From the NCBI GenBank assembly GCA_963835365.1, contig CAWIFH010000013.1, positions 73,707 through 137,706 on the forward strand: a stretch of 64,000 bases of DNA, in the 5' to 3' direction. Positions 252-22,690 of the stretch are shown here, in pieces; within the stretch, counting starts at the first letter, position 1; every line of letters begins with the position of its first letter. Origin of the DNA: an uncultured Cytophagales bacterium. GTDB taxonomy: Bacteria > Bacteroidota > Bacteroidia > Cytophagales > Cyclobacteriaceae. The notes under the pieces were generated by a model. It ran no database searches, was not told the DNA's origin, and was given only the letters and a program-made list of their open reading frames with translations. A program made the position numbers and the translations under genes.

Positions 252-317
252 TAAAAGTGTTTTTTTTTGCTTTACAAAGTGGTGATCATTGTCTACACAT
301 TTGATGATGCTCGTCAT
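252..317 (-). promoter_or_regulatory. Regulon A promoter of mlaE: tandem boxes plus -7 element
   Basis: GTGAtcattgTCTA 282-295; perfect ATGAtgctcgTCAT 304-317 (22 bp apart); -7-like CACTTTTA at 252-259 (minus), 30 nt from the proximal box. Confidence 0.65.
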
Positions 318-1068
318 GGCTGCTAAGGTCGTTAACCGCCTCACTATCATTTTAAAACCTAAAAAACTTTAGAACCTGTCTCCGGGACTGCCCTAAAATT
401 TTTATTTTGACCAATTGCGTGGGGGCGCCCAGCCTGCGGCTACCAGCCCAATTTTGCGCGAATCCTTTAGCTCCACTGCCCCAATGGAATGGCGGCAGCT
501 TTTTTCCGAACCATAGCGCTGGCTACGCGTCCCGGACTCCGCGTCCCAGCTATTCTTTTTAAGGAGAGCTGGGAGCGCCTGGCTTTGACTTCGCACAATC
601 CTTCCATGTGGGATACCGGCCTTTCGAAAGCAACAATAAATTCCGACAGCCGCTTAGGGACTTCTGGAAAAGCTGATTGTAGGCTTTTTAAAGGATTTAA
701 TGGTATCTCTTGCTATAAAGTCTGTAGGCCTTCCGGGAGCTCGAGGACATTGGCTCTTTATGAAAGTGCCTGGTTATATTTACCAGCTGGAATCTGGCGC
801 GCGTTTAGCGAAGCCTAAGGCGTGACTTTGGTGAGCCAAACCAGCATGAAACCTGGCCTTGTGCTTATTAAGTATATAAAATCATAAAGAACCAGGACAT
901 TTTTTTATACAAGGGGATGTTAAGAAAACCGTTCGGCTGTACATGCGTAACTTATTGATTATGAGTACAAACATCGATGTTTAAGCGGTAATAAAGTTTA
1001 ATGATTTCTCCTCTAAATGCTTTATGATTGGATAATTTCTGTTTAAATTAGAAGAAACACATTTTTTT

Positions 1069-2589
1069 ATGTCTCCTTACAAGTCAATTTCCTTAGAGAG
1101 CGAGGCAGGATTTAGGGTTATTTTTGAATGTGCTACGATTAGTATGCTGGTAGTTAACGAAAAAGGCAAGATTGAACTATCTAATTCTTGTGCGGAACAA
1201 CTCTTTGGGTATGGTCCGGCAGAGCTAAGCGGGCAGCCAATCGAAGTAATAATTCCTGAAAGCCTACACCTTCAACAGCAATCGCAGGGTAGTGACTATT
1301 TTGACACACCCAAAGCACTGCCGATGAGTATTAATCAGGAGTTATCTGCCCGAAAAAAAGATGGTACCATTTTTCCGGTGGAGATTTGCCTGGGTCATTT
1401 TGAACTGGAAGGTGCTAAACTGGTGGTTGCCTTTGTAAAAGATGTTACTTTGGAGCTGGCGGCAAAAAAAGTATTGGCCGATCGGGAAGCCTGGTTCAGA
1501 AATATGACTGAAAATATTCCTGTCATGATATGGGTGGCCGGGCCTGATAAGAAGTGTAATTATTTTAATAAAAGCTGGACTGCGTTTACAGGAAGAAGCA
1601 TGGAGCAGGAGCTGGATAGTGGCTGGGAAGAAAATATTCACCCCGAAGATCTGTTAAATGTCCACTCCACCTATGACAGGGTATTTGCATTGCACCAACC
1701 TTTTATAATTGAATACCGCCTGCGCCGCCATGACGGTCACTACCGTTGGTTGCAGCAGGTGGGGGACCCAACTTATTCGGCTGAAAATATTTTTAGTGGT
1801 TTTATCGGCTTCTGCTCCGATGTCCAGGAACAGCGAATGCAAAAAAAAGAGCTGGAGGAACTGGTACAAAAGCGGACGGCGGACATGTATCAGGCACTGA
1901 AGCGGGAGAAAGAAATGAATGAAATGAAATCTCGTTTCGTTTCTATGGCCTCGCACGAATTCCGAACTCCACTGACCATTGTTCTTTCCAGCACATCTTT
2001 GGTCGAACAAATGGCAGGAGCGGAAATAGATGAAAGGATAAGTAAACATCTGCGGAGGATAAAATCTTCTGTGAATTATCTTACCACTATCCTGAATGAT
2101 TTTTTATCGCTTGATAAGCTGGAACAGGGAAAAGTAGAAGTCCTGGAGGAGGAATTTGACATCGAAAAATTTCTGCATGAGGTGGTAGAAAACCTGAACC
2201 TTATGCAAAAGAGTAGTCAGCGGATTCGCCTTGTTCATAAGGGAAGTCCCCAGGTTGTTATAGACAGAAGTAAATTCCGCCATATTATAGAAAACCTTAT
2301 CTCCAATGCAATTAAATATTCTGCGGAGGATACCCATATTCAGGTTGATTCTGAAAATAGGGATGGCTTTTTAACCATTAGGGTAGAAGACCAGGGAATT
2401 GGCATACCAGAAGAACAGCAAAAGTTGATGTTTAATAAGTTTTTTCGGGCAAAAAATACCGTGAGCGTACAGGGGACAGGACTGGGGCTAACGATTGTAA
2501 AAAGTTATGTCGACCTGATGAACGGACACATACGCTTTGTAAGTAAAGAAGGGCAGGGTACTACCTTTATTGTTGAACTGCCTCAATAA
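1069..2589 (+). CDS. PAS-PAS sensor histidine kinase
   Basis: Two PAS/PAC domains, H-box ASHEFRTPL, N-box NLISNAIKYS, G-boxes DQGIG/GTGLGL. Confidence 0.95.
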   Translation: MSPYKSISLESEAGFRVIFECATISMLVVNEKGKIELSNSCAEQLFGYGPAELSGQPIEVIIPESLHLQQQSQGSDYFDTPKALPMSINQELSARKKDGTIFPVEICLGHFELEGAKLVVAFVKDVTLELAAKKVLADREAWFRNMTENIPVMIWVAGPDKKCNYFNKSWTAFTGRSMEQELDSGWEENIHPEDLLNVHSTYDRVFALHQPFIIEYRLRRHDGHYRWLQQVGDPTYSAENIFSGFIGFCSDVQEQRMQKKELEELVQKRTADMYQALKREKEMNEMKSRFVSMASHEFRTPLTIVLSSTSLVEQMAGAEIDERISKHLRRIKSSVNYLTTILNDFLSLDKLEQGKVEVLEEEFDIEKFLHEVVENLNLMQKSSQRIRLVHKGSPQVVIDRSKFRHIIENLISNAIKYSAEDTHIQVDSENRDGFLTIRVEDQGIGIPEEQQKLMFNKFFRAKNTVSVQGTGLGLTIVKSYVDLMNGHIRFVSKEGQGTTFIVELPQ

Positions 2590-2782
2590 GGAAGCCAGGC
2601 GGCTCGAGCCACCTTTTATTTTAGTAGAAATTTTCAGTAACTGGCTGCTTCTACCAACCATTTGATGCAAATTTATCCCCTCCCCGGGACCTTATCCTCC
2701 AGTTGCTTCAGCGCGGCAGAGGAAATCTTAGCCAAGCCTGTTAATGGTATACCTAAAGAGGAGCCATATCTCTCCTTTGATG

Positions 2783-2826
2783 ACGATGACCATCGTTGAT
2801 AGCCCCTGTGCCTACTTTTAAATTTA
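2783..2826 (+). promoter_or_regulatory. Regulon A box plus -7 element
   Basis: Palindrome ACGAtgaccaTCGT 2783-2796; TAAATTTA 2819-2826 ends 30 nt downstream. Confidence 0.55.
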
Positions 2827-3197
2827 CCCTAAATTCTCAACAAGAAGGAAAACAGCCTGCTCTTTAACCAAATGGCCTGCTTCCTTGAGATAGTTCAAGG
2901 AAGGCTGGTGATAACTGCTGATCGGTTGTCTGACTTTTATTTCCCCCGGAACTGCAATTGTGGCGGTTTTAGCAGCAAACTGGATCAATAACACCTACTG
3001 CCAGGGAGGCTGGTGACAGGAAAAATGGGAATGACGGCTTTCGGTCTTTTTATAATGCTGAAGCCGGTTTCTTTAACTCTAATTATAGGGGCCTTCATCC
3101 TGTTTACTGTTCTGCCTGACAGTGGGGAAAGAGGGTAAATATGTAAGTCGAAAACTGCCGGTAAGTTCACTTTTACCTAAGCTTAAAATACAGTAAA

Positions 3198-3623
3198 ATG
3201 AAAACATTTCTCAAAACCGTCGCTTCATTTTTGCTTCTTATCAATGGGGTGGGGGCCATATACGGTGGCTGGCATTTAATGAATCACCCCGATGGAAGCA
3301 GCCTTCAAATGCCCGTGTATGTCTTGCAATATTCTCCTTTTACCGATTATTTTATTCCCGGACTTATACTGTTTGTTGCCAATGGCTTGTTCAGCTTTTT
3401 TGTGTTGATAGCCCTGCTGTTTAAAATTCCAAAACACCCATGGCTGGTAATGATCCAGGGAGCCATTCTCACCGGATGGATTGTGGTCCAGTGTCTGATG
3501 CTCCAAAGTATTCACACTTTGCATGTTATCTTTGGTAGCATAGGGGCCGTTTTAATGATTTGTGGTTGGATGATTAACTCCCATAAGGTTGGGCAAATAA
3601 AAAAACATGAGCTGGTGTCCTGA
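3198..3623 (+). CDS. Hypothetical 4-TM membrane protein
   Basis: 141 aa, four hydrophobic segments, SPFTDYFIPGLILF motif, A-rich start context. Confidence 0.8.
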   Translation: MKTFLKTVASFLLLINGVGAIYGGWHLMNHPDGSSLQMPVYVLQYSPFTDYFIPGLILFVANGLFSFFVLIALLFKIPKHPWLVMIQGAILTGWIVVQCLMLQSIHTLHVIFGSIGAVLMICGWMINSHKVGQIKKHELVS

Positions 3624-3670
3624 AGACCGGTTATTCCCGCTGATTTTATTTTACCTGTATGCGATAACAA

Positions 3671-4498
3671 CTACGTGCGCAAATTAAAGATAAGTATGGG
3701 GGATTTTGGCTGATAAGCCATTTCTATAGTTATGCTTCTGGTCAATAAAGAATCTATAAAGGGGCGCCTGTAATGGGCCATAACCAATAATGTACCCGGG
3801 TTTTCGTTTAAAAATTCTTCTATGCCTTTAGAAAAAGATGCAGCGAATTTTAACTGGTGGGAGGTAAAAAGGAAAGGCATCTTTTGATTTACCAGCTCAA
3901 CCAGTCCCCGGTGCAGGATTTGTTCATAAAGCGAGTTGTGGGGCGCCACATGGATGGTATGTAGGTTTAAACCTATTTGCGTAGCGAGCCAGACCACTTC
4001 CTTCAGAACATCCAGGTCATCTTCTCTGTAGTCGACTGCATACACAACTTTATCCGTTTGATGATAGGCAGCCTGTTCTGGCACTGCCAGAACAGGCACA
4101 TCGGTACGCCGTATAAGTTCGGCCGTATTGCTGCCAAAAAAAGCCTTTTTTAGGCCACTGGCTCCTTTGGTTCCCATCACAATTAAATCGGCCCCTGTTT
4201 CTTCTGCCACTTCCATTATTGAATGAACCACATTGCCTTCCCTTAAGAACCCCTGGTACTTTACATTTTCAAAAGACTCCTTTTCTTCTAATGTCGCAAT
4301 CATTTCTTTCAGCTTTTTTTTTGCATCCTGCGTCATGTTTTGAATTGTCTCGTCCTTTCTTGCCGCAAAATCATAGGGTGTTTGATTCACGTGTAGCAAA
4401 AAGAGGTCGGCCTCAATCCTGCTACAAAGCCCTACAGCATAATGTATGGCATTATCTGCATTGGCCGAAAAATCAGTAGGAAGAAGAATCTTTTTCAT
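3671..4498 (-). CDS. Universal stress protein (tandem USP)
   Basis: MKKILLPTDFS start (ATG 4498), DLIVMGTKG..FFGSNT motif. Confidence 0.95.
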   Translation of the reverse strand: MKKILLPTDFSANADNAIHYAVGLCSRIEADLFLLHVNQTPYDFAARKDETIQNMTQDAKKKLKEMIATLEEKESFENVKYQGFLREGNVVHSIMEVAEETGADLIVMGTKGASGLKKAFFGSNTAELIRRTDVPVLAVPEQAAYHQTDKVVYAVDYREDDLDVLKEVVWLATQIGLNLHTIHVAPHNSLYEQILHRGLVELVNQKMPFLFTSHQLKFAASFSKGIEEFLNENPGTLLVMAHYRRPFIDSLLTRSITIEMAYQPKSPILIFNLRT

Positions 4499-4640
4499 AA
4501 AATTTATTTTATTGGCCAGCATTTTTTTGTAAAATTTCCGACACGACTGAAACTTGAATATAAAAGTTTTGATTTGTTAGGAGGCTTCAATCATTTATCC
4601 TTATGTTGATATAATATTGTAATTAATTGCCGGATTTTTA

Positions 4641-4706
4641 GTGATGTAGATTTTTGTTTCAGACGATGATGATCATTCTAACAGCCTTCGCAAGGCTGTA
4701 AATTGA
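4641..4706 (+). promoter_or_regulatory. Regulon A promoter of the kinase/REC-Crp operon (possible autoregulation)
   Basis: GTGAtgtagaTTTT 4641; ACGAtgatgaTCAT 4663-4676; TAAATTGA 4699-4706 ends 30 nt downstream. Confidence 0.55.
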
Positions 4707-4724
4707 TGCCAGTTTAACAGTTAT

Positions 4725-6669
4725 ATGAAGCTGTTCCTGGGCGACCATATTTGTATGAGCGATCAACTTTTTCATTGGAAGTTCCTCTTAGCGGGTTTTG
4801 GCCTGATGTCTCTGGTATTTATGATTGAAAAATACACGGGTTCATTAGTTGGCACAGTTGCTTATATTTTTATCGCTCTTGGTTTTCTGTGGTTGTTAAG
4901 AAAATCTCGTTATTTAGTTTTTTTCGGTGTTTTTGCTACACTTTTTATGGTGGCTCCTTTCCTTTTCTTTGTTAAATCAATGGAGCAAAATCCGGCCATT
5001 GTTATCAACAGGATCATATCTATGGCAGTGGTATGGTCGGCAGTATATTTTGTTTATCGTTTTAATAAACTGGATACTGAGCAAACGGATAACACCAACA
5101 GGCTTAATGCCCTCTTTGAAAATGCCAATGAAGGAATTCTTTTTGCCGATGAAAACGGCCTCATTATCAAGACAAATCCTTTTCTGGATAAAATGCTTGG
5201 GTATGCTGCCGGGGAATTGCTTAACCGGAATTTGCAACTGTTGATTCCGGACCATTATGCCATGAAGCATGTAGAACACATGAAAAATTATGTACAAAAG
5301 CCTGGTGGCAGGCATAAAGGAAGGGAGCTTTTGGGCCAGGAGTAAAGATGGCCATTCCTTTCCTGTAGAGATTAGTCTCAGCCATTTTTACGACCGGAAG
5401 AGGTTTACTGTTATCGCCTTTATGGTGGATGCGACTGAGAAAAAGCAAAACCAGGCTCTGATAGAAGCCAGCTTTAGCAATATTCAGCATTACAATCAAA
5501 AGCTGGAGGAACAGGTACAGCAAAGAACAAATGAACTTGAGCAGGCGAACCAGGAACTAAAAAAAGGCCAGTCTCTCTACAAAGCCATGGCCCAGAATTT
5601 TCCGGATGGCATTATCGGGGTGCTGGACAGGAACCTGAAATACCTGCTGGTGGATGGGAAAAACATTAGGCTGGTAGGATTAAATGAAGAAACAGTTATT
5701 GGTGACCGGATTTTTGACGATATTCATTCATTAATCTCAATACAAGCAGAAAAAGCCCTGAAAAAAGTATACCTCGGAGAAAATATTTCTTTTGATGTAG
5801 AATTGCAGGACAAAATTTACAATATAACATCTGTTCCTATTCCAGGAACGGGAAAAGAAATAGCTGAAATTCTTGTTGTAATTAAAAATATAAGTGAACA
5901 AAAAAAGCTTGAGAAAGAACTTGTTAAAACTCTTGAAAAGGAAAGAGAATTAAATTTTTTGAAAACAAGGTTTGTGACCATTGCCTCGCATGAATTCCGT
6001 ACCCCGCTCACAACTATTTTGTCTTCGGCCTATTTACTGGAACATTTTGGTGGGGAACAGCTTGAGAGGGAAAAAAAGAAACACCTGGGCCGTATTACAC
6101 TGGCTGTCCATGGAATGACGGAGCTATTAAATGACTTTCTTTTAGTGGGCAAACTTGAGGAAGAAAAAGTAAAGGCAACTTATAAAGAATTCCACCTGAT
6201 GCAGTTCATGAAGGATTTGTTGCAGGAACTTGAAATGGTAAAAAAAGAGGGACAAAAGTTAAACCTTTTTTTTGACGTTGTTCCAAGCCTCGTGTTGCTG
6301 GATCAACAATTGTTAAAAAGTATTTTGATGAATCTCCTTTCCAATGCAATAAAATATTCCCCGGTTGGAGAAAGAATTCAAATATCGGTAGAGAAACATA
6401 ATGATGAAATTATATTTGAAATACAGGATAAGGGCATTGGTATTCCCAAAGAAGAGCAGAAATATATTTTTAAACGTTTCTTTCGGGCACATAATACAAC
6501 CGATATCCAGGGTACAGGCCTGGGCCTGAATATCGCAAATAAATATGTAAAGCTGCTGAAGGGGAGCATTGCATTTACAAGCAGCTTAAATCAGGGCACC
6601 ACCTTTACGGTAAATGTTCCCCTTAAATTTAATAAGCAGAAAAAAATAACTAAAACGATTATTCCATGA
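4725..6669 (+). CDS. Membrane-anchored heme-PAS (FixL-like) sensor histidine kinase, split by a +1 frameshift near 5330
   Basis: ORFs 4725-5345 and 5290-6669 join if one T is removed from CTTTTGG (GRELWARSKDG); TM region, PAS with IPDHYAMKH, H-box ASHEFRTPL. Confidence 0.9.
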
Positions 6670-7724
6670 GTTACCACATTTTATTAATAGAGGATAATGC
6701 TCATATGGCAGAGAATATTTCCAGTATCCTGGAGCTGGCCCATTATCAGGTAACGAGTGCTCTCAATGGCAAAATAGGAGCGGAAATAGCCCAGCAAACC
6801 CTACCAGATCTTATTTTATGCGATATAATGATGCCTGAGCTTGATGGATACGGGGTGCTGCATATTCTTCAGGCAAACCCGGAGACCTCAAACATTCCTT
6901 TTATTTTCCTGACCGCCAAAGCGGATAAAAGTGATTTTAGAGCAGGGATGAACCTGGGAGCAGATGATTATATTACCAAACCTTTTGATGGAGTAGACCT
7001 GCTTAGAGTCGTGGAAATGCGCTTAAAGAAAGATGGGACCCTGCGCGCCAGGTATGGGAATAGTCCTTTCGACAAGGCTTCTTTTTTCAGCAAAACCAGG
7101 GAGCTGCATGATTTAAAGAAACTCTTTGAGAACCGGGTACACCGGATATTTAAAAAGAAGAGCTTTATTTTTATGGAAGGTCAGAATCCCAATGATGTCT
7201 TTTACATAGAAAAGGGTAGGGTAAAAACCTATAAAATGAATGATGATGGAAAGGAACTCATTACCGGAATACTTGGGGAAGGTGATTTTGTAGGCTACGT
7301 TTCCTTGCTGGAAGACAAGCCATATAACGAGAGTGCAGAGGTACTGGAAGAAACAGAGGTCTCAGTAATACCTAAATCTGAATTTTTGGCATTGATCTAT
7401 TCAAGCAAGGATGTTGCCAGAAAGTTTATCAAAATGCTAACGAATAATCTGGAGGAAATGGAAAGCAGAATGCTGGATATTGCTTACCAGTCTGTGCGAA
7501 AGCGCGTAGCCAGTGTACTGCTTAAAATCAACGAAAGGTTTTCTGAGGCCGGTAAGGCTCCTCTGATTACCATAGCAAGAAAGGATATATCAAGTATGGT
7601 AGGAACTGCCACCGAATCCCTTAATCGAACACTGGTGGATTTTAAGAATGAAGGCCTTATTGAAATTTCAGATAAGGGCCTTAAAATACTTAATAAACCA
7701 AAACTTGAGCGACTTCTGCATTAA
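6666..7724 (+). CDS. Response regulator fused to a Crp/Fnr cNMP-binding and HTH domain
   Basis: REC (ILLIEDN, DLILCDIMMP, DDYITKPF); Crp beta-roll (IFMEG..VFYIEKGRVK); HTH RKDISSMVGTATESLNR; overlaps kinase stop. Confidence 0.95.
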   Translation: MSYHILLIEDNAHMAENISSILELAHYQVTSALNGKIGAEIAQQTLPDLILCDIMMPELDGYGVLHILQANPETSNIPFIFLTAKADKSDFRAGMNLGADDYITKPFDGVDLLRVVEMRLKKDGTLRARYGNSPFDKASFFSKTRELHDLKKLFENRVHRIFKKKSFIFMEGQNPNDVFYIEKGRVKTYKMNDDGKELITGILGEGDFVGYVSLLEDKPYNESAEVLEETEVSVIPKSEFLALIYSSKDVARKFIKMLTNNLEEMESRMLDIAYQSVRKRVASVLLKINERFSEAGKAPLITIARKDISSMVGTATESLNRTLVDFKNEGLIEISDKGLKILNKPKLERLLH

Positions 7725-7845
7725 AAACCCTGGTCCACTGCCAGTAATGGTCGCCTGCCGCCACGCTCCATAAGTTGTCAGGAACTTCCGGGCTCCCCGC
7801 AACCAGAATTAGAGCAAATCAGGTGTAATTGGTTTTAACAGCCTG

Positions 7846-8676
7846 CTAGTGATAAGCACCCGGAATGGCTAGTAAAGGCACTTTTGTACGCAGCGTCATT
7901 TCCTGGGTGTTCCCTGTTTTAAATATCGTATTCCAGAAGCCGGCTTTGTGCGGAGACATCACCAACAAATCGGCCTGGAAATCATGCACTCCTTTTTCTA
8001 TGCCCCCTATAATATCATCATGTTCAATATGCTGATAGGAGTGTTTTACACTTTTAAAAATTAACTCAATCCCTGAAACCATTTCCGGCATATTTCTACC
8101 TGGTACAGCATAGGCTTCCTCTTTGGCCACCTGGAGGATTTGTAAGTGGGCGTTAAAAGCATAAACGAGTTTTTTTAATAAACCAAGATTAGTGTCCAGG
8201 ATCAGTTTTCTGCTGTCACAGGCAAAAAGAATATTTTTAATTTCATGAAATACAGCGTTTTCAGGAATTATCAGTACCGGAAAGTTCGCCTGCCTCAGAA
8301 TGTTGGTGGTGGTATTCCCAAGCAATTTATGCGTTAAAAAGCTGCCTCCCATACCCATTACAACCACATCAGCATGTTTATCCTGGACCAGTTTTTTCAA
8401 CCCGCCCATCATAAAAGAAGCGCTGCTTACACTTTCGGTCTTCATACCAAACGTCTCCTCAATTTCCTGTGCCATGCTTTGGAGCCGTTCCATATTTTCC
8501 TCTTTCAAACCTTCCAAATCCGGAATGGAAAATGGAATTCTGCTGCTAGGGTTGGGTAGATGGAAAGTGTTGAAAAGAATGAGCCGGGAATTAAAGTACT
8601 TTGCAAGTGCAGCAGCATAGGCAACAGCATTGTCGGCTGCTTCTGAATAGTCGGTCGTTGCAATAATCGTTTTCAT
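7846..8676 (-). CDS. Universal stress protein
   Basis: MKTIIATTDYS, DVVVMG..LLGNTT. Confidence 0.95.
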   Translation of the reverse strand: MKTIIATTDYSEAADNAVAYAAALAKYFNSRLILFNTFHLPNPSSRIPFSIPDLEGLKEENMERLQSMAQEIEETFGMKTESVSSASFMMGGLKKLVQDKHADVVVMGMGGSFLTHKLLGNTTTNILRQANFPVLIIPENAVFHEIKNILFACDSRKLILDTNLGLLKKLVYAFNAHLQILQVAKEEAYAVPGRNMPEMVSGIELIFKSVKHSYQHIEHDDIIGGIEKGVHDFQADLLVMSPHKAGFWNTIFKTGNTQEMTLRTKVPLLAIPGAYH

Positions 8677-8845
8677 GATATGATTTTAAAAAATTGATAA
8701 GTCTATTTATTTAGGGGCAGAGGTTTGTAAAACCAAGGCTCCTGCTTAGCCGCTAAAACCATAGCTGCAGGTTTCCAGTACCTCAAAGTCTATTTACATT
8801 TTTTTGCCATGTTCCTGAAGTTGCACAAAGAACATAGTATAGGGA

Positions 8846-8912
8846 ATGAGCAGGATCATTAAAAATACAGGACTTTAATCATGTTTTTTCCGTGCGTCCC
8901 TTTTTACCTTTA
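8846..8912. promoter_or_regulatory. Regulon A tandem boxes, probably bidirectional
   Basis: Perfect ATGAgcaggaTCAT 8846-8859; AGGActttaaTCAT 8869-8882; TACCTTTA 8905-8912 ends 30 nt downstream on +. Confidence 0.65.
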
Positions 8913-8990: not shown

Positions 8991-9566
8991 TCAATAACTA
9001 AGCACCTGCCTGGGAGGGTTTGCAAGCTGTTTGTTTTCAGGAAATCTGTTAAAAATTTTGGTGACTGCCTTTTCGATTAGCAGCTCGATATGCTCAGGTG
9101 AGGAACCAATATTGATGACGGAAACGGCCCAACCGCGCCATATTAATTTCTTGGTTTGGACATCCATTAGATCCAGAATTAAGGTTCCTTCTTTATACTG
9201 GGGCATACTTGTTTGCATACAAAACCAATAGGGGTCATTGTAAAATCCGGCTTGTTCCCGCATAACGGAGGCTTTTTCATCTACAATAATGTGATAATGG
9301 ACCATCAATTGTGGTTCAATGTCTGTGAAGATGTAGCCCCTGTTTGTTAGTTGTTGCATTACGGCCGTCTTAACCCGCTTGTCATTGAGCTCATTATAAT
9401 AAATAGGGTCTTTCCCGGCTTCTATATTTGTTTTCTGGGTCCAGTCAAAAGTGGAATAGTTCCAAAGGTCATAGTCCGGGTCATAATCGGTAAACACCTG
9501 TATTTTCGAGCTGCAACCTGTCATTAGGTAAAGAAATACAGGAATTAGGAAGATTAAATATTTCAT
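8991..9566 (-). CDS. DUF4136 family lipoprotein
   Basis: Lipobox MTGC; QYKEGTLILDLMD..LIWRGWA. Confidence 0.9.
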   Translation of the reverse strand: MKYLIFLIPVFLYLMTGCSSKIQVFTDYDPDYDLWNYSTFDWTQKTNIEAGKDPIYYNELNDKRVKTAVMQQLTNRGYIFTDIEPQLMVHYHIIVDEKASVMREQAGFYNDPYWFCMQTSMPQYKEGTLILDLMDVQTKKLIWRGWAVSVINIGSSPEHIELLIEKAVTKIFNRFPENKQLANPPRQVLSY

Positions 9567-9589
9567 GGCAATAGTATTGATTCCTGGTT

Positions 9590-9655
9590 TAAAAATAAAT
9601 GAAAGTGAGATGGAGGTAAATGACGGGGGTCCCTAAATACCAGGATTTTAATCAT
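9590..9655 (-). promoter_or_regulatory. Regulon A promoter of the DUF4136 gene
   Basis: ATGAcgggggTCCC 9620; AGGAttttaaTCAT 9642-9655; TATTTTTA (minus) 9590-9597, 30-nt rule. Confidence 0.65.
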
Positions 9656-12985: not shown

Positions 12986-14694
12986 TTAAACAGGCTTTTT
13001 TTGTATGTTCTTTAATACAACGAATTGGGCAGGCTTTAACTTTATCTTTATAAAGTGGTGGCTGCCGCTTTCATTTTTTAATACATGAACCTGCCCCGTA
13101 GCACCATAGCAAAAGTCGAAATAGCTTCCTTCGGGGTTTAAATTCCTGTTAACGGCAATATATTCTTCGTCTTCATTGCTGAGAGAATTGTTATAAACAA
13201 TGAGCATTTCCTCATCATACAATATTCTTGAAAAGGCGAGCATGCAATCATGCTGAACCGGCAAATGGAAATAAAGGCCATCATTGGAGTAGTGGCATAT
13301 GTACATGCGGCCGAACTTCAGTGGCGGACAGCTTTTTCTAATATTTGCAAGCCTGGCGATCTCCTGGTAAATCGTATTGTTTTTATTCAGGGTATTGGTC
13401 GAGGTATCTTCCAGGCCGAACATGGCCTCTCTGATATTCCAGTCGCCTTCTCCCTTTCCCTGGAAACCCTGTTCGGTTCCATAATAAATGCAGGGGGTGC
13501 CCAGGGCACAAAGCAAAAAACCAATGCCAGCAATAATCTGCGCTTCCGTGGCATTAGCTCCAAACCTTTTTTAACGCTTTGGCCCACCTGGTCGTGGTTA
13601 TCTATAAAAGTCACTAAAAACTCGCCGAACTCCCCCCGTAACAGGGCTCCCTTCCGCAGGGATTCATAGCGTTCAATTAATCTTTCAGGGGTTTCTTCTC
13701 CCAGAATAACCCTGGCCAGCACGTGGTAGAGCGGAAAATCCAGCACGGAATTTAAACCATGATAAATGGCCTTGTCTTCGACCTGGATCGAAGTTTTGGG
13801 GCCGATGTAATGGTTATACATTTCTTCCGGTGCCACCAGTTCACCAAAAAGAAAGAAGTTACGTTTGCCCAGTTTATAGGCATATTCCCTGATGTGAGAA
13901 CAAAACTGGCTGATGGTTTTTTCGCCCATATGTTTGACCGCATCGAGCCGGAAGCCGTCAACATCTGTTTCGCGTATCCAGTAGCAGTGGATTTTTGTTA
14001 AAATATCCTGCACATATAGGGCCTCGGGAGATTCATCGTTCTTAAATGTTTTTAAACTGAGAAAATCTCCCTCCCGGGTTTCCGGGTAATTGTCAAAGTT
14101 CCTTATCTGACCTTTTCGCCCATACAGTTCAGCATTCCTTAACTCAAGGGGCGCGGGCTTATTTTTATACCGCCAGTCGCCGAAAGGGAATACCATGCCA
14201 TTGTAGTAGTAATAATCTACATCGCCGGGATAACTCCAGTTGTCGCCGGAGTGGTGCAGGACAATATCCAGAAACACCCGTATTTCCATGGCATGGGCAG
14301 CATCGACCAGGGCGGCCAGGTCTTCCTTCGTCCCGAACGCAGGGGCAATTCTGGTATAGTCCTGAATGGCATAGCCATGGTAAGCTCCTTCATTATTTTC
14401 AAAAACCGGGCTTAGCCACAGGGCTGTGCAGCCCAGGTCCCTGATATAATCAAGGTGACTGGTAATACCTTTTATGGTTCCGCCGCAATTTTTCCGGAGT
14501 GCTTCAGGAGAGCCGAACCCTTTTGTTTTGCCTGCCTGCTTAAGAGGCCTGCGCTTATGGTCATCATGAAAGCGATCCACCATCAGAAAATAAATGAATT
14601 CCTCGCGCCACTCACGATAACAGTTTTTCCAGTAAACCTTTCCTGCTTTTGGCGACAGGTCCAGCTCATTTATCGACAGAATGGGTGATTTCAT
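12986..14694 (-). CDS. GH13 alpha-amylase family protein; one base missing in an A-run near 13570
   Basis: YHGYAIQDY, DGFRLDAVKHM, FIDNHD, PCIYYGTEQG; adding one A joins both ORFs. Confidence 0.88.
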
Positions 14695-14723: not shown

Positions 14724-14842
14724 CAAAGGTGAGTGAATTTACGATGGGAGAAGATGATGACTATGCCTGTTTTTGATGATTTAGATCGTCCTTGTCGGAT
14801 GCAATAAGTCATTGATTGCGCTATGCGCCTGCAGTACCTTTA
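14724..14842. promoter_or_regulatory. Divergent regulon A promoters with three boxes
   Basis: Boxes at 14754 (weak), 14776 ATGAtttagaTCGT and 14799 ATGCaataagTCAT; CACCTTTG (minus, 14724) and TACCTTTA (+, ends 14842), both 30 nt from the nearest box. Confidence 0.7.
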
Positions 14843-14867
14843 GAAAGTACTTTTTAACCTCATTGCC

Positions 14868-15170: not shown

Positions 15171-15193
15171 TTTTTTTTACTTCATGGATAGGA

Positions 15194-16079: not shown

Positions 16080-16561
16080 AAAACCTCCCGGATTTTGTAT
16101 TCATATGCTTTGTATGAAAAAGTATCATCTTTTTGTTTTCCCTCCATGACTTTATACAAAGGGCTATGGGTGGAAATGCCATATATTTTTGCTCCATAAA
16201 CAATAAAAGGCCCAATGCTGGTAGAAATAAAAAATGTTTTTTTATCGGTTACCACCACACAGCCCTCTTGTATGCTATAGTGATCTTTTTCAGTTAACGG
16301 CAGCAAACTGTAGAGCACCTGCATTTCTTCATTGGCAAAATTCAATTGACCGGCCAGGGCATTTACTTTGAATAATAGTTCGGCGTTGAAAGCTTGTTGC
16401 GAAAGATCGAATTCCCCTTCATTCACTTTTTCTTCACTCTGCAGCAATTCACGGATGTTTTGCTTTAAGTCATCAATTAATGTTTGAAGTTTTTGGATTG
16501 CCCCCTCCAGTATTTTCTTTTTAAATACAGAATGGGTAGTACTTATTAAATGTGTTCCCAT
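16076..16561 (-). CDS. Hypothetical protein with GreA/GreB-like architecture
   Basis: N-terminal coiled coil; IQEGCVVVTD..FFIS..ISTHSPLYKVMEGKQKDDTF. Confidence 0.7.
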   Translation of the reverse strand: MGTHLISTTHSVFKKKILEGAIQKLQTLIDDLKQNIRELLQSEEKVNEGEFDLSQQAFNAELLFKVNALAGQLNFANEEMQVLYSLLPLTEKDHYSIQEGCVVVTDKKTFFISTSIGPFIVYGAKIYGISTHSPLYKVMEGKQKDDTFSYKAYEYKIREVF

Positions 16562-16581
16562 GGCATAATCGTTTATTCATC

Positions 16582-16647
16582 TCAAAATAGAATTATTAAG
16601 TTTCTTTTAAGATGACAAAAATCTCGGCTAACGATGATTTTCATTGT
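16582..16647 (-). promoter_or_regulatory. Regulon A promoter
   Basis: ATGAcaaaaaTCTC 16612; ACGAtgatttTCAT 16631; TATTTTGA (minus) 16582, 30-nt rule. Confidence 0.5.
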
Positions 16648-17200
16648 AAGTTGTGCCTGTAGTCTCTTTGATGATTGCTGGTATGAAAGGGGAATTGTGC
16701 GGTCTTTGAAAAGAAAAAATAATTCTGATAGTCAGCCTGATGCTTTTAATAAGAGGGCCGATGAAGCCCTGCAGGAGCCGGCTTTAAAGAAGACCCTTTA
16801 AGAAAAATTTTTCAATTCGACAGCTGCACAAAAAGGCTGGCTGCAAACAGGTAGTTGTGCCTGTGGTAGGACTATATTTTTACTGAAACTATCCGGCAGC
16901 TGTATGCCGGGGGTATCCGCTGCGGTGGGAAAGCCGGGAATAAATTTTTGATACATGAACCTGTATCCTGCCGGACCACCCTGAATTACTCCTTGAGAAG
17001 ATGGCGTTTCTCTGGTGTCCGGAAATTTATCCCCATTTTACAAAAGCAGTAGCCGCGGAGGAAACCCATAGCTCATGTGGCTGTCTTGCCGACTGTTAGT
17101 GCTTGTTCCAGGTTTCTCTTTCGGGTAAAGCACGAAATAAAACCCTGGCGAGGTGGGTAAAAATACCCGGCAAGGTGACTTAGCTTGCCGAAAAATGAAC

Positions 17201-17236
17201 CTTGAAGCAGATAAGCTGCTTGAAGCAGATAAGCTG
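17201..17236. repeat. Perfect 18-bp tandem duplication
   Basis: CTTGAAGCAGATAAGCTG x2. Confidence 0.9.
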
Positions 17237-17292
17237 AAGGAGCCGGTATCTTACGAATTACTGGATTTCAAAACGTTCCGGGCGCGACATCC

Positions 17293-18048
17293 TTATTGCG
17301 CAACCCACCCACCATCGACCGGCATGGCATGACCGGTTATAAAAGAAGCGGCCTCTGAACACAGCCAAACGGCAGCCGCTGCAATCTCTTCCGGCCGGCC
17401 CATCCGGCCCACAGGCTCTCCGGCGGCCATCGCTTCCTCGCTCATATGGTTCTTCTCCAGGAAACGGTCGATCATCGGCGTTTTAATCACCCCCGGGCAA
17501 ACGGCATTGATCCTGATGCCGGATTTGGCATATTCCAGGGCGGCTGTTTTGGTTAGTCCCAGTATACCATGCTTGGAAGCGGTATAAGCTGCTATGTTGG
17601 GGAAGCCAATCAGGCCGGCAATAGAGGAGCAGTTCACAATTGCTCCTTTTCCCTGCCGCAGCATATGGGGTAGCTGGTACTTCATACAAAGCCAGACACC
17701 TTTCAGGTTGATGCCTAACACTTTGTCCCAGTTCTCTTCACTTACTTCATGAGTTATGGCTGATGCCCCCTCTATACCAGCATTATTGAAAGCATAATCC
17801 AGGCGGCCGAAAGTATCCACCGTCTGGGCAATCATGGCTTTTACCTCACTGTCGCTGGAAACATCACACTTAATATAAATAGCTTCGCCGCCTACCGCGC
17901 GGATTTCCCGCAGGGTTTCTTCGTTATCCACCCAGTCTACCACGACCACTTTAGCTCCCTGCCGGGCAAACAACACCGCCGTAGCCCGACCGATGCCGAA
18001 ACTGCCACCGGTCACGATGGCTACCTTGTCTTGAAACTGCTTTTCCAT
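17293..18048 (-). CDS. SDR family oxidoreductase
   Basis: TGGSFGIG, NNAG, YTASK, VDGG. Confidence 0.95.
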   Translation of the reverse strand: MEKQFQDKVAIVTGGSFGIGRATAVLFARQGAKVVVVDWVDNEETLREIRAVGGEAIYIKCDVSSDSEVKAMIAQTVDTFGRLDYAFNNAGIEGASAITHEVSEENWDKVLGINLKGVWLCMKYQLPHMLRQGKGAIVNCSSIAGLIGFPNIAAYTASKHGILGLTKTAALEYAKSGIRINAVCPGVIKTPMIDRFLEKNHMSEEAMAAGEPVGRMGRPEEIAAAAVWLCSEAASFITGHAMPVDGGWVAQ

Positions 18049-18234
18049 AAAATATTTGTCTTTAATTTATCCGGGATTCCTTAACAGATTATTGGCTTTC
18101 AGGCCAGCGTATCGGGCAGCTTTTGCCGGGATTTTCATCGAAAATATACGCTTAGAAAAATGATAAGCAGGAATCCTGACTTTATTTGAAATAGTGCTAT
18201 GTCATGAATTTATTGAAATAATGGTACTGCAGGA

Positions 18235-18300
18235 ATGATTGTAAACACCGATTCTGCAGACTTTTATCATTACTATTCCGTTGCTAAGCGTTTATCTTGC
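18235..18300 (+). promoter_or_regulatory. Regulon A tandem boxes plus -7 element
   Basis: ATGAttgtaaACAC 18235; CAGActtttaTCAT 18257-18270; TATCTTGC ends 18300. Confidence 0.55.
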
Positions 18301-18936
18301 TTAATGCAGCCTAAGTGGGGCAAAAAATGAAGGGTTTCACCTGTTTGGCGGAAGCATCCCATTGATTATGAGCCTATTTTTTGTGATTTTTATTTCTGAT
18401 ATTTTTAGGAAGATATACTTTTTTGTAACACGGAAATAATTTTGCAGAAATAAAGCTTCGACCGTTTTGCACCAGGAATACTTCAAAAATTATTAATAAT
18501 TATAGGCGCGGGTTCACCCTCCAAATATCGGGGGAAGGTCCCGCCCGTTGCTCCGCAGCGGAAGCAGCCTGCGAAGTCAGTACTAAAAAAACGTAAAGGA
18601 AGAGGTAGCTGAGGCGGATGGGGCGCTTATATCAGCCGCGCGCGGATATAAGCCAGTAGCTCCAGGGTTTTGCTTTAATTAATTTCCTAAGCCTGGAAGC
18701 CAAACTGTTTTTTATAAAGTGAAACCTTAACAGTAAAAACCAGCAGCGGGATCGTGGGAAAATGCGGTACAGGCAATGGTGTAACAGGATAAGTTGATTG
18801 AACAGCCTGGTGTGGTAGGCGATGTAAAACATCACTCTGGAAGACTTTGAACATTCATTTCCCCGGCTGAAAGGCTTATCTTTCTGTATCCAATCTTTTT
18901 AAGCAGAACAGGCAGCAGAAAGGCTTTTTTTAGGCT

Positions 18937-19611
18937 GTGGTTGAAAGGGCTGAAGAGAAAATTTTTAACAGTATGATGATGAGAAAAAAGAAATCTTCGG
19001 AGAACCTGAAGCTACTGACGGCGGTCCTGCTTGCTTATGTGGCAGCCATGCGGATTATTCGACCATGGTACCTGCGATGGGGCACCACTGATGCTGAACT
19101 GGTACAGCCGCTGCCAGGCGATGAGCTAATGGACCACGTGGCTTCCAACCACGCTATTAGCATTCATGCCCCGGCCACGGCCGTATGGCCATGGCTGGTG
19201 CAGATAGGGCAGAACCGGGCGGGCTTTTACAGCTATACCTTTCTGGAGAATCTGCTGGCAGCCGATATGCATAACAGTGACCGCATTAAGCCGGAATGGC
19301 AACAGCTAAAGGTAGGCGATAAGGTACGACTCGCCTCCAAAGCAGTATATGGCGACTTTCCGCTGCTTGAGGTGGCAGCGCTGGAAAAAAATCACTACCT
19401 GGTGCTGAAGGGCTGGGGAGCCTTTGTGCTGCAGCCTGTCGATGCGCACACCATCCGCCTGATTATTCGCTCACATGCCGGAAGGGAAGGGGCGTTTACC
19501 CGCATGGCGCGTTTGCTGCTGCTGGACCCTGTCCACTTTATCATGGAACGCGGCATGCTGCTGGGAATTAAGAAGAGGGTTGAGGGGGCAGAGAGTGTTC
19601 CTTCCCACTAA
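18937..19611 (+). CDS. Hypothetical SRPBCC-like protein (start uncertain, possibly near 18973)
   Basis: RWGTTDAE..LPGDEL..VWPWLVQIGQNRAGFYSY..HFIMERGMLLGIK. Confidence 0.85.
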   Translation: MVERAEEKIFNSMMMRKKKSSENLKLLTAVLLAYVAAMRIIRPWYLRWGTTDAELVQPLPGDELMDHVASNHAISIHAPATAVWPWLVQIGQNRAGFYSYTFLENLLAADMHNSDRIKPEWQQLKVGDKVRLASKAVYGDFPLLEVAALEKNHYLVLKGWGAFVLQPVDAHTIRLIIRSHAGREGAFTRMARLLLLDPVHFIMERGMLLGIKKRVEGAESVPSH

Positions 19612-19899
19612 AGCAGTTCAAAGGGCTTTTTTCTTTGTGTAAAAAGTATAAATGCTAAATGTGGGTTTTCTTAGCTATAGGCAACCAGAATGAAACAAAA
19701 GGCCTCCCTCATAAGGCTCATCTAGGGATAACACCATTTTCAGACGAGAGCCACCAACTATTTTTGGCATCATTACCGTATATGTTGGAATTATAACAGG
19801 AGCGGAAGGCAAGTGCGCTACTCAATTGACCCGCGAAACAGTAAAATGCCGAAGACCCCCATTGACGGCCCTGGCGTATGCCAGCAAAACAGAAAAGAG

Positions 19900-20145
19900 T
19901 CAGGAGGATTTATACAGATTTCTTCGTAAAATATGGTAATTAAAGCCATCGAAGCTGTAGTGTAGCCCGGCCTCCTGTAAAGCGTGGTCGATATCTACCT
20001 GCTTAAGAGATCCCCTGGGCTCGCGGATCTTCTGATGGGGAGCCGGCCGCAGCTTCAGCTGGCTGTTGAAAAGGTTGAGGTAGTTTCCCAGGTCTTCCAC
20101 AGTCTTCAAAGCGAGGTGATCGGCATACACAATAGGGTCCATCAT
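19900..20145 (-). CDS. Hypothetical small protein
   Basis: ATG 20145 preceded by a consensus TAAATTTG -7 element at 20170-20177. Confidence 0.55.
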   Translation of the reverse strand: MMDPIVYADHLALKTVEDLGNYLNLFNSQLKLRPAPHQKIREPRGSLKQVDIDHALQEAGLHYSFDGFNYHILRRNLYKSS

Positions 20146-20212
20146 AAAACATAAAAAGGGTGAAAAGTGCAAATTTAATAGTTTATCATTTTCTACTTAG
20201 GTGTTTAAGGAA

Positions 20213-20695
20213 TTACCAATGGGCCCCCGTATATGTCTTTTCAAACCGGCCACTTCTTTCCGCTATTTTGATGCGAAAAACCACAGGTTTTTGTGGCTTT
20301 TCTATTAGGTGCGGCTTTTCCGGAAGTTCCGGGTCCTCCTGGGGACCTGGCTGCACCGTTTCGCTGATGGCATAAGGACTCAAACGGTGTTGCAGAATCA
20401 GCCTGCCTTCTTCCTGTTCAGTAGGGTACCGGAGCTCTTCATAGGTTCCCCATACAATGACACTGCGCCAGTTGGATAAATTCTCCAACTGATCTACTTG
20501 AAAACATATCGATGGATTTTGTCGCATCATATGAATTTTTTTTCCTTCCTTGGAGTGAGCATAGATATTATTATTATGGTAGGCATAGCTTATAGGCACT
20601 ATATATACCTTACCTTCAGAATAGCATCCAATTCGGCCAGTTATCTGTGACTGGAGCACATGCACTATTTGTTCAGGGTTTAAGGATCCGAGCAT
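20213..20695 (-). CDS. Pyridoxamine 5'-phosphate oxidase-like FMN-binding protein
   Basis: GRIGC..YIVPISY..EGKKIHMMRQNPSICFQVD..WRSVIVWG. Confidence 0.92.
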   Translation of the reverse strand: MLGSLNPEQIVHVLQSQITGRIGCYSEGKVYIVPISYAYHNNNIYAHSKEGKKIHMMRQNPSICFQVDQLENLSNWRSVIVWGTYEELRYPTEQEEGRLILQHRLSPYAISETVQPGPQEDPELPEKPHLIEKPQKPVVFRIKIAERSGRFEKTYTGAHW

Positions 20696-20822
20696 GACCG
20701 TAGCGGTTAATTGTAAATTTATCTCATCAAAGGCAGGAGCTGTAAATTATAGTAGCTAAAAACTGGCGCTCCTGCTTTCCGGCAATGCCAACAGCTGCAT
20801 AAAAGCAAGAGAAGGCTAAGCG

Positions 20823-20852
20823 TTAGCCCTGAATTTCTCCATCCAGGGCTAA
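20823..20852 (-). terminator. Hairpin after the BON gene
   Basis: TTAGCCCTG...CAGGGCTAA. Confidence 0.5.
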
Positions 20853-20865
20853 TCCTCACTGGCAG

Positions 20866-21543
20866 TTATAAGAGGACAGGGAGAATGACCTCTATTCTAT
20901 TTTCTACTGCTGTAACACCAGGAGCCTTCCAGACACATCGTTCTGCTTCTTTTTTTTCTGCCCAGGAGCGCACCTGGCCGTGCAGGATTACCTGGTTGCC
21001 GGAAACATCCATAGTAATAGTGTTAGCATCTAAAGTCGCGTTCCTGTGGAATGCAGCATTAATCTCCCTTTTAAGTTGCTGTTGGTCAACTTTTTTGTCA
21101 GGCACTATAGTCATACGATTAATGACTCCTTTTATACCTTTTAAATTCTCTACCGATTTCTCTGCCAGGGTTTTCTGGTAGGACCAGTTAACTTCTCCTT
21201 CCAGGTATATCCAGCCATTTTCTACCTTTACCTTAAGGCGGTCTTCTTCTACGGCAGAGTTCCATTTGAGTGCCTGGGAGACGGCCTGGGCAATGTCTGA
21301 ATCGCTGTGGGTATGTACGCCAGGCAAAACCACCTGAATGTCCAGGGCGACTACCTTTACCCCTTTAACCCGTTTAGCGGCCTGTTCAGCAGCCAGCTTT
21401 TTGGTGTAGCTGTCTACCTGGCCCACAAGGGTAATGGTTCCGTCTTTTGCAGTTACGCCTATTTCTGTGGAGGCGGACTTCAGTACTGGCTCGTATTGGA
21501 GTTCATGCATAACGTCTTTTTGTAATTCTACATTAGTTTTCAT
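20866..21543 (-). CDS. Triple BON domain (OsmY-like) protein
   Basis: Three repeats of G.V.L.G.V....K..AE......GV..V.N. Confidence 0.95.
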   Translation of the reverse strand: MKTNVELQKDVMHELQYEPVLKSASTEIGVTAKDGTITLVGQVDSYTKKLAAEQAAKRVKGVKVVALDIQVVLPGVHTHSDSDIAQAVSQALKWNSAVEEDRLKVKVENGWIYLEGEVNWSYQKTLAEKSVENLKGIKGVINRMTIVPDKKVDQQQLKREINAAFHRNATLDANTITMDVSGNQVILHGQVRSWAEKKEAERCVWKAPGVTAVENRIEVILPVLL

Positions 21544-21665
21544 GATGCTAAAAGATTAAAAAGTAAAATAAGATAAATGTATGCCACCCGTTTACGACAG
21601 CTAACCATAAAATCGAATTTTTAAAGTAGCTGCCTTTTTTGTATTCCGGAAGCTGGCAGCTGCTT

Positions 21666-21731
21666 GCAAGGTGCTTGATTACAAGCTGTATTTCAATGAT
21701 TCCGGTTTAGCTGACTGGTGATTTTAATCAT
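21666..21731 (-). promoter_or_regulatory. Regulon A promoter of the BON gene
   Basis: ATGAttccggTTTA 21696; GTGAttttaaTCAT 21718; CACCTTGC (minus) 21666, 30-nt rule. Confidence 0.6.
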
Positions 21732-21955
21732 CAAACTTTTTGTTGGCAGCTAAGGGATAAGAATGGAAAAGGCGGGGTTCCCCGCCTTTTTCGGTATTCT
21801 TGGAATGCTTCAAATGAGCCTCCCGCTGACGTACCTTCATTAACAATATCCCTGAAGAGGGTCCCTTTTCTGACCAGTTCAAAAAATTAAAAATTCCGGA
21901 TAAAAAAATAGAATGCACCAGGTGTTCAGTTCCTTCTTCAGTTTATTTTCATCTA

Positions 21956-22021
21956 TAAAGATAAGGCTGATGTGCTGGCCGACCAGCGATGGAGATCCTC
22001 TTGTTTCAGGACTTTCATCAT
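21956..22021 (-). promoter_or_regulatory. Regulon A promoter with no clear gene
   Basis: GCGAtggagaTCCT 21986; AGGActttcaTCAT 22008; TATCTTTA (minus) 21956, 30-nt rule. Confidence 0.65.
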
Positions 22022-22126
22022 TTCGCCGGATGAATGGTTCCTTTTTCGACCTTAATTAAATTTTCCAGCTGCAGCCCGAAAGCAGGCATAAAAAGAAAGG
22101 CTCCCTCCTGTAGCGTTGGCTATGGT

Positions 22127-22585
22127 TTAGGAGACGTTGATTTGTTTCCTGGTTTTTTGCTGACTTATCTCTTTTTTAGGAATATGGATTCTCAGTACTC
22201 CATCTACGTATTTTGCATCAATTTTGTCAGCCACCGTATTGGACGGTAGCTGAAAGGAACGGCTGAAAGAATTATATACATACTCCTTTCTTGAATAGTC
22301 ATCTTCCTCCTCCTCTTTTTCATCTTCTTTTTCAGCACGAATGGTAAGCAGGTTATTATTCAAATCCACATGAAAATCCTGCCGCCTTAGGCCCGGTGCT
22401 GCCAGCTCAATTTGGTACTCCTTGTCAGTTTCTTTGATATTGGCAGAAGGAATGGTTACCCCTATTCGGCTGGGTAAGCGACTGCCCATGTCGCTAAACA
22501 TAGAATCAAAAATTGAACTTGGCCTGAACCAGTCAGAAAACAGGGTGGGCATTTCTCCATTTTTCTTTTTTAATGCAAGGCTCAT
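22127..22585 (-). CDS. Hsp20/alpha-crystallin small heat shock protein
   Basis: PSANIKET..ELAAPGL..SFSRSFQLP..AKYVDGVLRIHIPK. Confidence 0.97.
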   Translation of the reverse strand: MSLALKKKNGEMPTLFSDWFRPSSIFDSMFSDMGSRLPSRIGVTIPSANIKETDKEYQIELAAPGLRRQDFHVDLNNNLLTIRAEKEDEKEEEEDDYSRKEYVYNSFSRSFQLPSNTVADKIDAKYVDGVLRIHIPKKEISQQKTRKQINVS

Positions 22586-22624
22586 AATAACTTCCTTTAG
22601 ATGTGAAAAAATTTATTTATCAAA

Positions 22625-22690
22625 TAAAAGTACCAAAAAAGTGGGCTCGCAGCGATGATCCTGGTTTTGGAAAAAAAAGATTTTTATCAT
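22625..22690 (-). promoter_or_regulatory. Regulon A promoter of hsp20
   Basis: ATGAtcctggTTTT 22655; AAGAtttttaTCAT 22677; TACTTTTA (minus) 22625, 30-nt rule. Confidence 0.6.

Follow-up and report, generated by a model that had tools for sequence, protein, structure and literature searches.

The 64,000-nucleotide stretch of DNA from an uncultured Cytophagales bacterium analysed here (the window) carries, in its first 23 kb, promoters of fixed geometry in which paired Crp/Fnr-type boxes stand upstream of a -7 element. This layout is genuine. We put at roughly 70% the reading that these are low-oxygen promoters occupied by Crp/Fnr-family dimers at -41.5 and -63.5, with a neighbouring fusion of a receiver to a Crp-type regulator (REC-Crp, window 6666-7724) as the likeliest reader in the surrounding island, probably phosphorylated by a FixL-like kinase. 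The operator is widespread, is without description in the literature searched, and is assembled from known components.

Read along transcription, each promoter comprises a distal 14-mer, 8 nt (9 nt in three cases), a proximal 14-mer, a gap of 22 nt and a YAnnTT element. YAnnTT stands at exactly gap 22 in 12 of the 13 oriented promoters used for training, the exception being 4641 (-), and a single box at 2783 likewise has YAnnTT at this gap. The initial annotation had described tandem ATGA-N6-TCAT boxes, mostly 22-23 bp apart, with a TAnnTTT(G/A)-like -7 element 30 nt from the proximal box. Every box coordinate it gave carries TGA/TCA half-sites, but a weaker pair at 18819/18841 was missed. The spacing holds generally; the two boxes at 16612/16631, however, are separated by 19, and a 22-bp register is also available at 16634. 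The fixed distance also stands, 30 nt being the 22-nt gap plus the 8-nt element, whereas the strict TAnnTTT(G/A) form occurs in only 6 of 14 cases (the 13 training promoters and 2783), with CAnnTTT(G/A) in two more. The operator is a TGA/TCA palindrome as proposed, but its general form is broader (HTGAY-N4-RTCAT), and in the window the proximal box is mostly a half-site: across the 13 promoters the half-sites average 6.2 bits (distal outer), 3.6 (distal inner), 0.1 (proximal inner) and 6.3 (proximal outer). Perfect ATGA-N6-TCAT matches number only three in the 64 kb (304, 8846 and 55026), and one-mismatch matches 48 against 22 by chance, a count inflated by start codons; simple counting of this motif is confounded by them and was excluded from the evidence. 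In several cases divergent promoters share one box pair, and two of them use the same middle box, at 14776.

To place these promoters against background, a matrix made from the 13 window promoters only was used to scan held-out intergenic DNA of the same genome. This recovered 14 pairs at spacing 22 and 4 at 23, against 0-2 at the other 29 spacings, and a -7 element at gap 22 in 7 of 33 held-out pairs, against 0-1 at the other 29 gaps. The same peaks recur in a foreign set of 80 loci around REC-Crp homologues from Cytophagales, Saprospiraceae, Flavobacteriales and unclassified Bacteroidota, with 115 pairs at spacing 22, 30 at 23 and 0-11 at others; here the -7 element lies at gap 22 in 66 of 144 pairs, at gap 23 in 15 and at other gaps in 0-4 (both strands counted). 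The consensus of 119 foreign sites reads, in order, HTGAY-AAAW-RTCAT, HTGAY-N4-RTCAT and TAnnTTTG, with no enrichment of TTTG in the spacer, and its TGA-N6-TCA palindrome core is present in the symmetric matrix as well. Among these sites the first base of the distal box is A in 45%, C in 30%, T in 15% and G in 9%, and the last base of the proximal box is T in 82%.

A model trained on 100 of the foreign sites (threshold score at least 16) found 14 promoters in the 16 intergenic segments (6228 bp) of window 1-23000, whereas 100 dinucleotide shuffles each yielded none, an enrichment over shuffled sequence that the initial annotation had set as a check; the test is not fully independent, because the foreign sites were first picked with this genome's matrix. 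Genome-wide, the model returns 46 sites, 39 of them intergenic and 24 within C13:44-118 kb, around the local REC-Crp gene. With exact patterns searched in 40 relatives, ATGA-type matches numbered 41, in 20 genomes, against 4 for the reversed control; CTGA-type matches numbered 32, in 16 genomes, against 2. A strict pattern of two full boxes gave 81 matches in 35 of 401 genomes, with none for the reversed control; it occurs in 30 of the 99 foreign genomes that share the class, order or family, and in 4 of the 301 remaining genomes of the phylum. These counts include related genomes, which are not independent, and exact patterns overlook many sites. The peaks in spacing and gap support a Crp/Fnr-type operator of phased pairs at a fixed distance from the -7 element, as first proposed, and together with the empty shuffles and the empty reversed control they rule out chance or an AT-rich artefact. 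Single boxes at gap 22 are also common, and tandem sites occur in relatives with stand-alone Crp/Fnr proteins only, so the box position appears family-wide and the tandem frequent, not universal.

The response to oxygen could be followed in Flavobacterium psychrophilum, for which we searched supplementary files 3, 4 and 6 of Guerin et al. (PMC9723704); in this species the sigma-A -7 box lies at -12 to -5. A box 22 nt upstream therefore covers -48 to -35 (centre -41.5), and a distal box is centred at -63.5. The former is the class II position of FNR and CRP. At the ccoI promoter, chosen by name from the table of transcription start sites (TSSs), a perfect box lies at -48 to -35 and ccoI changes by +4.94 (log2 fold change, as are all values below) under oxygen limitation; for the divergent Crp/Fnr gene the same box lies at -35 to -22, and this gene changes by -1.18 (adjusted P 0.075). 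When the TSS table was searched without regard to expression, five of 17 exact 12-mer cores led to six further 5′ ends; 11 of the 17 were without a match, besides one repeated term. All three ends with the 22-nt gap are induced (peroxiredoxin +6.54, cytochrome c551/552 +4.12, a hypothetical gene +1.87), and all three with the box over the core promoter are lower (-1.24, -0.67 and about -0.7, the last from the expression columns). Box position predicted the direction of the oxygen response in six of six blind cases, and an existing dataset is thereby explained. In three of the four F. psychrophilum promoters with this layout the box lies at -48 to -35 of the mapped start, and the fourth has the same 22-nt gap with its start called 3 nt earlier; for all four, oxygen limitation gives the largest increase among the displayed comparisons. 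From the oxygen-limitation gene list, 30 of about 526 rows were examined. A Crp/Fnr operator that responds to low oxygen from -41.5 is very probable. Induction at low oxygen, as found for single boxes in this species, likely extends by analogy to the window promoters.

The target genes point the same way. Those in the window comprise two universal stress protein (USP) genes, Hsp20, BON, pyridoxamine-oxidase-like, DUF4136, short-chain dehydrogenase and amylase-like genes, and a kinase gene, HK2; elsewhere in the genome they include further USP genes, ccoS, copper nitrite reductase (nirK), pta and proline dehydrogenase, with an HPF-like gene below the cut-off. The same layout precedes ccoS, FixH-like, nirK and hemN genes. 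The largest clusters among 110 foreign targets are USP-like proteins (26), the regulator itself (8), Hsp20 (6), kinases (5), ccoN (5), CBS (4) and hemN (3), some labels, including ccoN and hemN, having been read from the sequences by eye. The low-oxygen gene set suspected at the outset is borne out by this content, plus the expression data above; the label 'dormancy' would describe gene content only.

The genome carries three REC-Crp proteins and one Cys-rich FNR-like protein (C5:337766) as candidate readers. The local regulator (6666-7724, +) is a REC-cNMP-HTH_Crp protein of 352 residues with an Asp53 phospho-acceptor motif and the recognition helix GTATESLNR. CRP is recognized by Gly-Glu and Arg in the cAMP pocket and by Arg before Glu in the recognition helix. 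The local protein aligns without these pocket residues, its pocket reading G-Y and P-Y-N and its helix T-E, and scores 83.9 bits against the CRP model (cut-off 266); the four-cysteine Fe-S cluster is also absent, its one Cys lying in the receiver domain. The FNR-like protein has a Cys-rich N-terminus and scores 108.5 against an Fnr cut-off of 228. In a quick tree the local protein falls in a 16-member clade (SH-aLRT 100) with TESLNR-like helices; the long branches of this tree (FNR, C5 and C13:43k proteins) are unreliable, and L056 and L080 were left out. A site lies within 10 kb in 15 of 15 foreign clade members, against 42 of 65 other loci; sites in which neither inner half is degraded make up 14 of 42 in the clade and 56 of 77 outside it (Fisher 4e-5; related loci are not independent). 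The genome itself shows the same trend: both inner halves are intact in 0 of 23 island sites and in 7 of 11 sites on other contigs, and the first base is A in 20 of the 23 and C in 6 of the 11, some of the island entries being two orientations of one pair. Since weak inner halves are common to island and clade, we regard the local REC-Crp as the most probable reader of the island subtype and, on balance, favor it as the main one.

Co-occurrence with REC-Crp orthologues, suggested as a check in the initial annotation, was found in part: the pattern is present in 18 of 21 relatives with a REC-Crp-length match, but also in 8 of 13 with stand-alone Crp/Fnr matches only and in 1 of 6 without any. 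The tandem sites of those eight rule out an exclusive link to REC-Crp. A clean division in which CTGA marks FNR and ATGA marks REC-Crp holds in this genome and fails in relatives, the FNR-adjacent sites of G009 starting with ATGA. At L096:12145-15541 in another relative (G005), a PAS kinase lies beside a stand-alone Crp that lacks cysteine, and tandem boxes flank Hsp20; this may be the kinase/REC-Crp module in unfused form.

Two histidine kinases precede the regulator. HK1 (1069-2589, +) is a PAS-PAS kinase whose first PAS has Gln where FixL-like neighbours have His. HK2 (4725-6669, +), a membrane PAS kinase, is read in two overlapping frames, the break falling in a T run near 5330. The two pieces tile end to end on single orthologues of 650-655 residues, and other genes in the assembly are similarly split, so this frameshift is likely an assembly error. 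The split genes are a CusA-like gene (24153-28496), HK2 (5290-5345), an amylase-like gene (12986-14694) and a DsbD-like gene (37182-38870), which fits an error-prone assembly (71% completeness). The PAS domain of HK2 departs from the FixL consensus and keeps the FixL-type His; its weak PDB matches include the haem-PAS domains of DosP and FixL (E 3e-4). The best PDB match to this domain is 10jx/10jy (E 3.3e-6), a recent 'multi-sensor histidine kinase' domain that shares the His. Across the loci, a FixL-like P-x5/6-H PAS motif is present in 59 of 72 that bear a kinase, by a loose regular expression adopted after a stricter one for haem-PAS matched none.

From these elements a mechanism can be proposed. 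At low oxygen, a deoxy haem-PAS kinase would phosphorylate Asp53 of the REC-Crp protein, merging the steps of FixJ and FixK. The strong distal box would load a first dimer and help a second onto the weak proximal half-site, both on the same face of the DNA (22 bp is about 2.1 turns), which may give a sharp switch; that two dimers cooperate at each promoter is probable. The proximal box would stand in for the -33 element, as at class II FNR promoters, and recruit sigma-A polymerase, while the box before HK2 is predicted to supply positive feedback. The FNR-like protein, for its part, would read CTGA-type pairs at cbb3 oxidase genes.

Several observations weigh against this reading. The helices of the two other REC-Crp proteins and the FNR-like protein resemble that of the local protein, with T/S-E-x-x-x-R in common, and a relative (G011) has two pattern matches with no Crp match at 1e-20. 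Among strong proximal boxes, only 41 of 70 in the foreign loci and 10 of 31 in this genome have a distal partner. Were the frameshift in HK2 real, the local sensor would be dead; a search for the PAS His motif came up empty in 13 of the 72 loci with a kinase, among them L005, L007, L013 and L014 from the clade of the local regulator, and 10 of 82 loci showed no kinase. In F. psychrophilum, cat2 is induced (+1.38) with an imperfect box at -34 to -21, and within the -50 to +10 covered by the TSS table no box is present at uspA (+1.08) or, likewise, at hemA. This coverage means that the table tests the box at -41.5 and not the pair; ccoI apparently has no distal box in the overlapping sequence of the divergent promoter, and the three annotated Crp/Fnr genes of the species are all of stand-alone size. 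The two tandem sites of G011 lie at L103:3704 and L102:7032, the Crp/Fnr domain having been sought there at 1e-20 with the query used.

The same promoters and the same oxygen signal could instead be served mainly by another reader, C5:337766 or the REC-Crp at C21:125107, with one box shared by the whole family. We consider this unlikely. In its favor, some of the tandem sites in relatives with stand-alone proteins lie directly beside Cys-rich regulators, the shared helix residues would allow it, overlap between FnrN and FixK is a known problem (PMC4999443), and C21:125107 adjoins a canonical double-FixL kinase that is intact with textbook FixL PAS motifs. Against it, island sites differ from those near FNR and cbb3 genes in both first base and inner halves, this difference tracks the regulator clade in foreign loci, and sites are densest around the local gene.

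A general stress regulon, read by a Crp/Fnr protein whose main signal in the island is nitric oxide, carbon monoxide, redox state or stationary phase, would also account for USP, Hsp20, BON, amylase and phosphorylase genes, and it sits well with the atypical PAS of HK2, with the missing His of HK1 and with one F. psychrophilum target that also rises in stationary phase and iron depletion. It is nevertheless quite improbable, given the layout before ccoS, FixH-like, nirK and hemN genes and the ranking of oxygen limitation at all four F. psychrophilum promoters. Also very improbable, in our view, is that the boxes of the island form a single 36-bp inverted repeat (ATGAY-N26-RTCAT) occupied by a preformed tetramer or by a protein outside the Crp family. 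The near-equal outer halves of the window sites and the near-empty proximal inner half are what such a repeat predicts, but the distal inner half still holds 3.6 bits, the clade orthologues keep inner halves at 4.5 and 3.7 bits, the divergent three-box promoters share their middle box, and single 14-bp boxes work at the same position.

The design can be compared with known systems. The FNR/FnrN/FixK consensus is TTGA-N6-TCAA, given as TTGANCNNGATCAANG in PMC4999443. The operator resembles FNR/FnrN/FixK class II sites in its TGAY-N4-RTCA core, in a centre placed 29 nt ahead of where the -10/-7 element begins, in activation from upstream and repression over the core promoter, and in cco, hem, nir and USP targets. 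Unlike those sites it has an outer A or C instead of T, departing from the outer T/A bases of TTGAT-N4-ATCAA, operates with the -7 promoter of Bacteroidota, is joined in many promoters by a phased partner box at -63.5 and, putatively, has a phospho-receiver fusion as one reader. Like the alphaproteobacterial FixL-FixJ-FixK cascade (PMC4999443), it places a FixL-type PAS kinase, with a candidate haem-ligand His as in FixL, beside a regulator whose Crp/Fnr output domain lacks the Fe-S cysteine cluster; in contrast to that cascade there is no separate REC-LuxR FixJ, the gene after the kinase encoding the REC-cNMP-HTH_Crp_2 protein. With the receiver fused to a FixK-like domain, the cascade would be one step shorter.

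The cargo also recalls the DosR regulon, which carries USP, Hsp20 and similar genes and whose DevR sensors are of the GAF type. In M. tuberculosis, induction of tgs1 by DevR/DosR needs phased tandem boxes at -42.5 and -63.5 (PMC3177182), and the 22-bp peak suggests tandem, helically phased boxes near -42 and -63 here as well. DevR is a NarL-family protein with an 18-20 bp box, whereas Pfam assigns Crp domains to the proteins here; they are unrelated, and the design is therefore convergent. Within Bacteroidota, the MalR/BT4338-type Crp of Bacteroides is likewise a Crp/Fnr-family protein with a predicted motif, a carbon-source regulator to which Flavobacteriales and Saprospiraceae homologues have been assigned (PMC8510549); the paired box is absent from the text of that paper as consulted. 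Matsui 2013 (PMC3590769), apart from its figures and supplements, has one passage that names Bacteroidetes and no motif text. Consistent with the initial annotation, no paper describing the box was found, in a search that left outside most subscription papers, RegPrecise and the PMC9723704 SI Appendix. Nor did the literature searched contain a described oxygen-responsive operator for aerobic Bacteroidota. These bacteria are major polymer degraders, and many are denitrifiers and N2O reducers.

A wider scheme, in our view slightly less likely than not, is a Crp/Fnr grammar of Bacteroidota's own, in which all activators of the family would act at -41.5 of the -7 promoter, the outer base and the -63.5 partner would sort FNR-like, REC-Crp and other paralogues, and one REC-Crp clade would have a haem-kinase-driven, DosR-like cooperative switch with a strong distal box and a half-site as proximal box. 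Under this scheme the switch would be a convergent one for dormancy, and its regulon, with cbb3, nitrite-reductase and stress genes among its members, could be recognized in sequence phylum-wide. If the proposed mechanism is true, the kinase-to-REC-Crp shortcut with its phased tandem would have reached the DosR design independently, by a second path. The surprise is limited, since the FNR box, the class II position and FixL are all known elements. A motif of fixed geometry makes low-oxygen regulons readable from genomes with near-zero background and offers hints of function for many unknown genes, and short promoters of this layout would be hypoxia-inducible.

Along the window, the first pair (282-317, -; proximal box 282-295, distal 304-317, -7 element 252-259) precedes a gene for an MlaE-like ABC permease, which is truncated by the beginning of the window. 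The single box at 2783-2796 (+; -7-like element 2819-2826) is the weakest case: it has no distal box, was missed by the tandem model, and the next open reading frame (ORF), at 3198, is about 370 nt off. Between a USP gene (3671-4498, -) and HK2, the divergently shared pair 4641-4654/4663-4676 has a poor -7 element towards the USP gene and one at 4699-4706 (+) facing HK2. A second USP target (7846-8676, -) is preceded by another divergently shared pair, 8846-8859/8869-8882, which is 23 apart, with -7 elements at 8816-8823 (-) and 8905-8912 (+). The DUF4136 lipoprotein-like gene (8991-9566, -) follows the pair 9620-9633/9642-9655 (-; -7 element 9590-9597). In the three-box region (14724-14842), with boxes at 14754, 14776 and 14799, the middle one is the distal box of both divergent promoters, whose -7 elements at 14724-14731 (-) and 14835-14842 (+) face the alpha-amylase-like gene and a 100-residue ORF. 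Further on, the proximal box 16612-16625, with its distal box at 16631 (spacing 19) or 16634 (22) and a -7 element at 16582-16589 (16582-16647, -), lies upstream of a 161-residue ORF; the pair 18235/18257 (18205-18270, -; -7 element 18205-18212) upstream of the short-chain dehydrogenase gene; and the weaker pair, distal 18819 and proximal 18841 (18819-18884, +; -7 element 18877-18884), upstream of an ORF at 18937-19611. The BON-domain (20866-21543) and pyridoxamine-oxidase-like (20213-20695) genes, both on the minus strand, are targets, and the pair 21696/21718 (21666-21731, -) has its -7 element at 21666-21673. The next pair is 21986/22008 (21956-22021, -; -7 element 21956-21963). The Hsp20 gene (22127-22585, -), at higher coordinates, is a target with its own pair 22655/22677 (22625-22690, -; -7 element 22625-22632). 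The promoters at 8905-8912 (+), which is antisense-facing to the DUF4136 gene, and at 21956-21963 (-) are strong and have no ORF of at least 80 residues directly downstream; they are candidates for small RNAs or small proteins.

Outside this cluster, window 55007-55069 holds the perfect box at 55026 with TAnnTT at gap 22 and a partner box 19 apart, between a gene for a large secreted protein and an oxidoreductase/2-oxoacid:ferredoxin oxidoreductase operon. A third box type, a single GTGAC-N4-(G/A)TCAC with the same 22-nt gap, occurs at window 44426-44439 (-), 48690-48703 (-) and 34184-34197 (+) and at C13:39842 and 66849 (-), preceding USP/YeeE-like and metallo-beta-lactamase/rhodanese genes. 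The helix GTSREVISR is found in a stand-alone Crp (C13:43310-43951) whose Arg-Glu pair we take to mark a CRP-type reader of GTGA and which may govern a separate sulfur-related regulon. The USP genes at C13:38917-39747 and window 43513-44343 share identical first 40 residues and the same GTGAC box, which points to a recent duplication. Finally, C5:1-50000 (L002) of the same genome has a GC content of 0.37-0.39, against about 0.45 for the rest of its contig, and carries its own PAS kinase, REC-Crp, hemN and ccoN with 8 single boxes lacking a distal partner; it is either a transferred island or a chimeric assembly.

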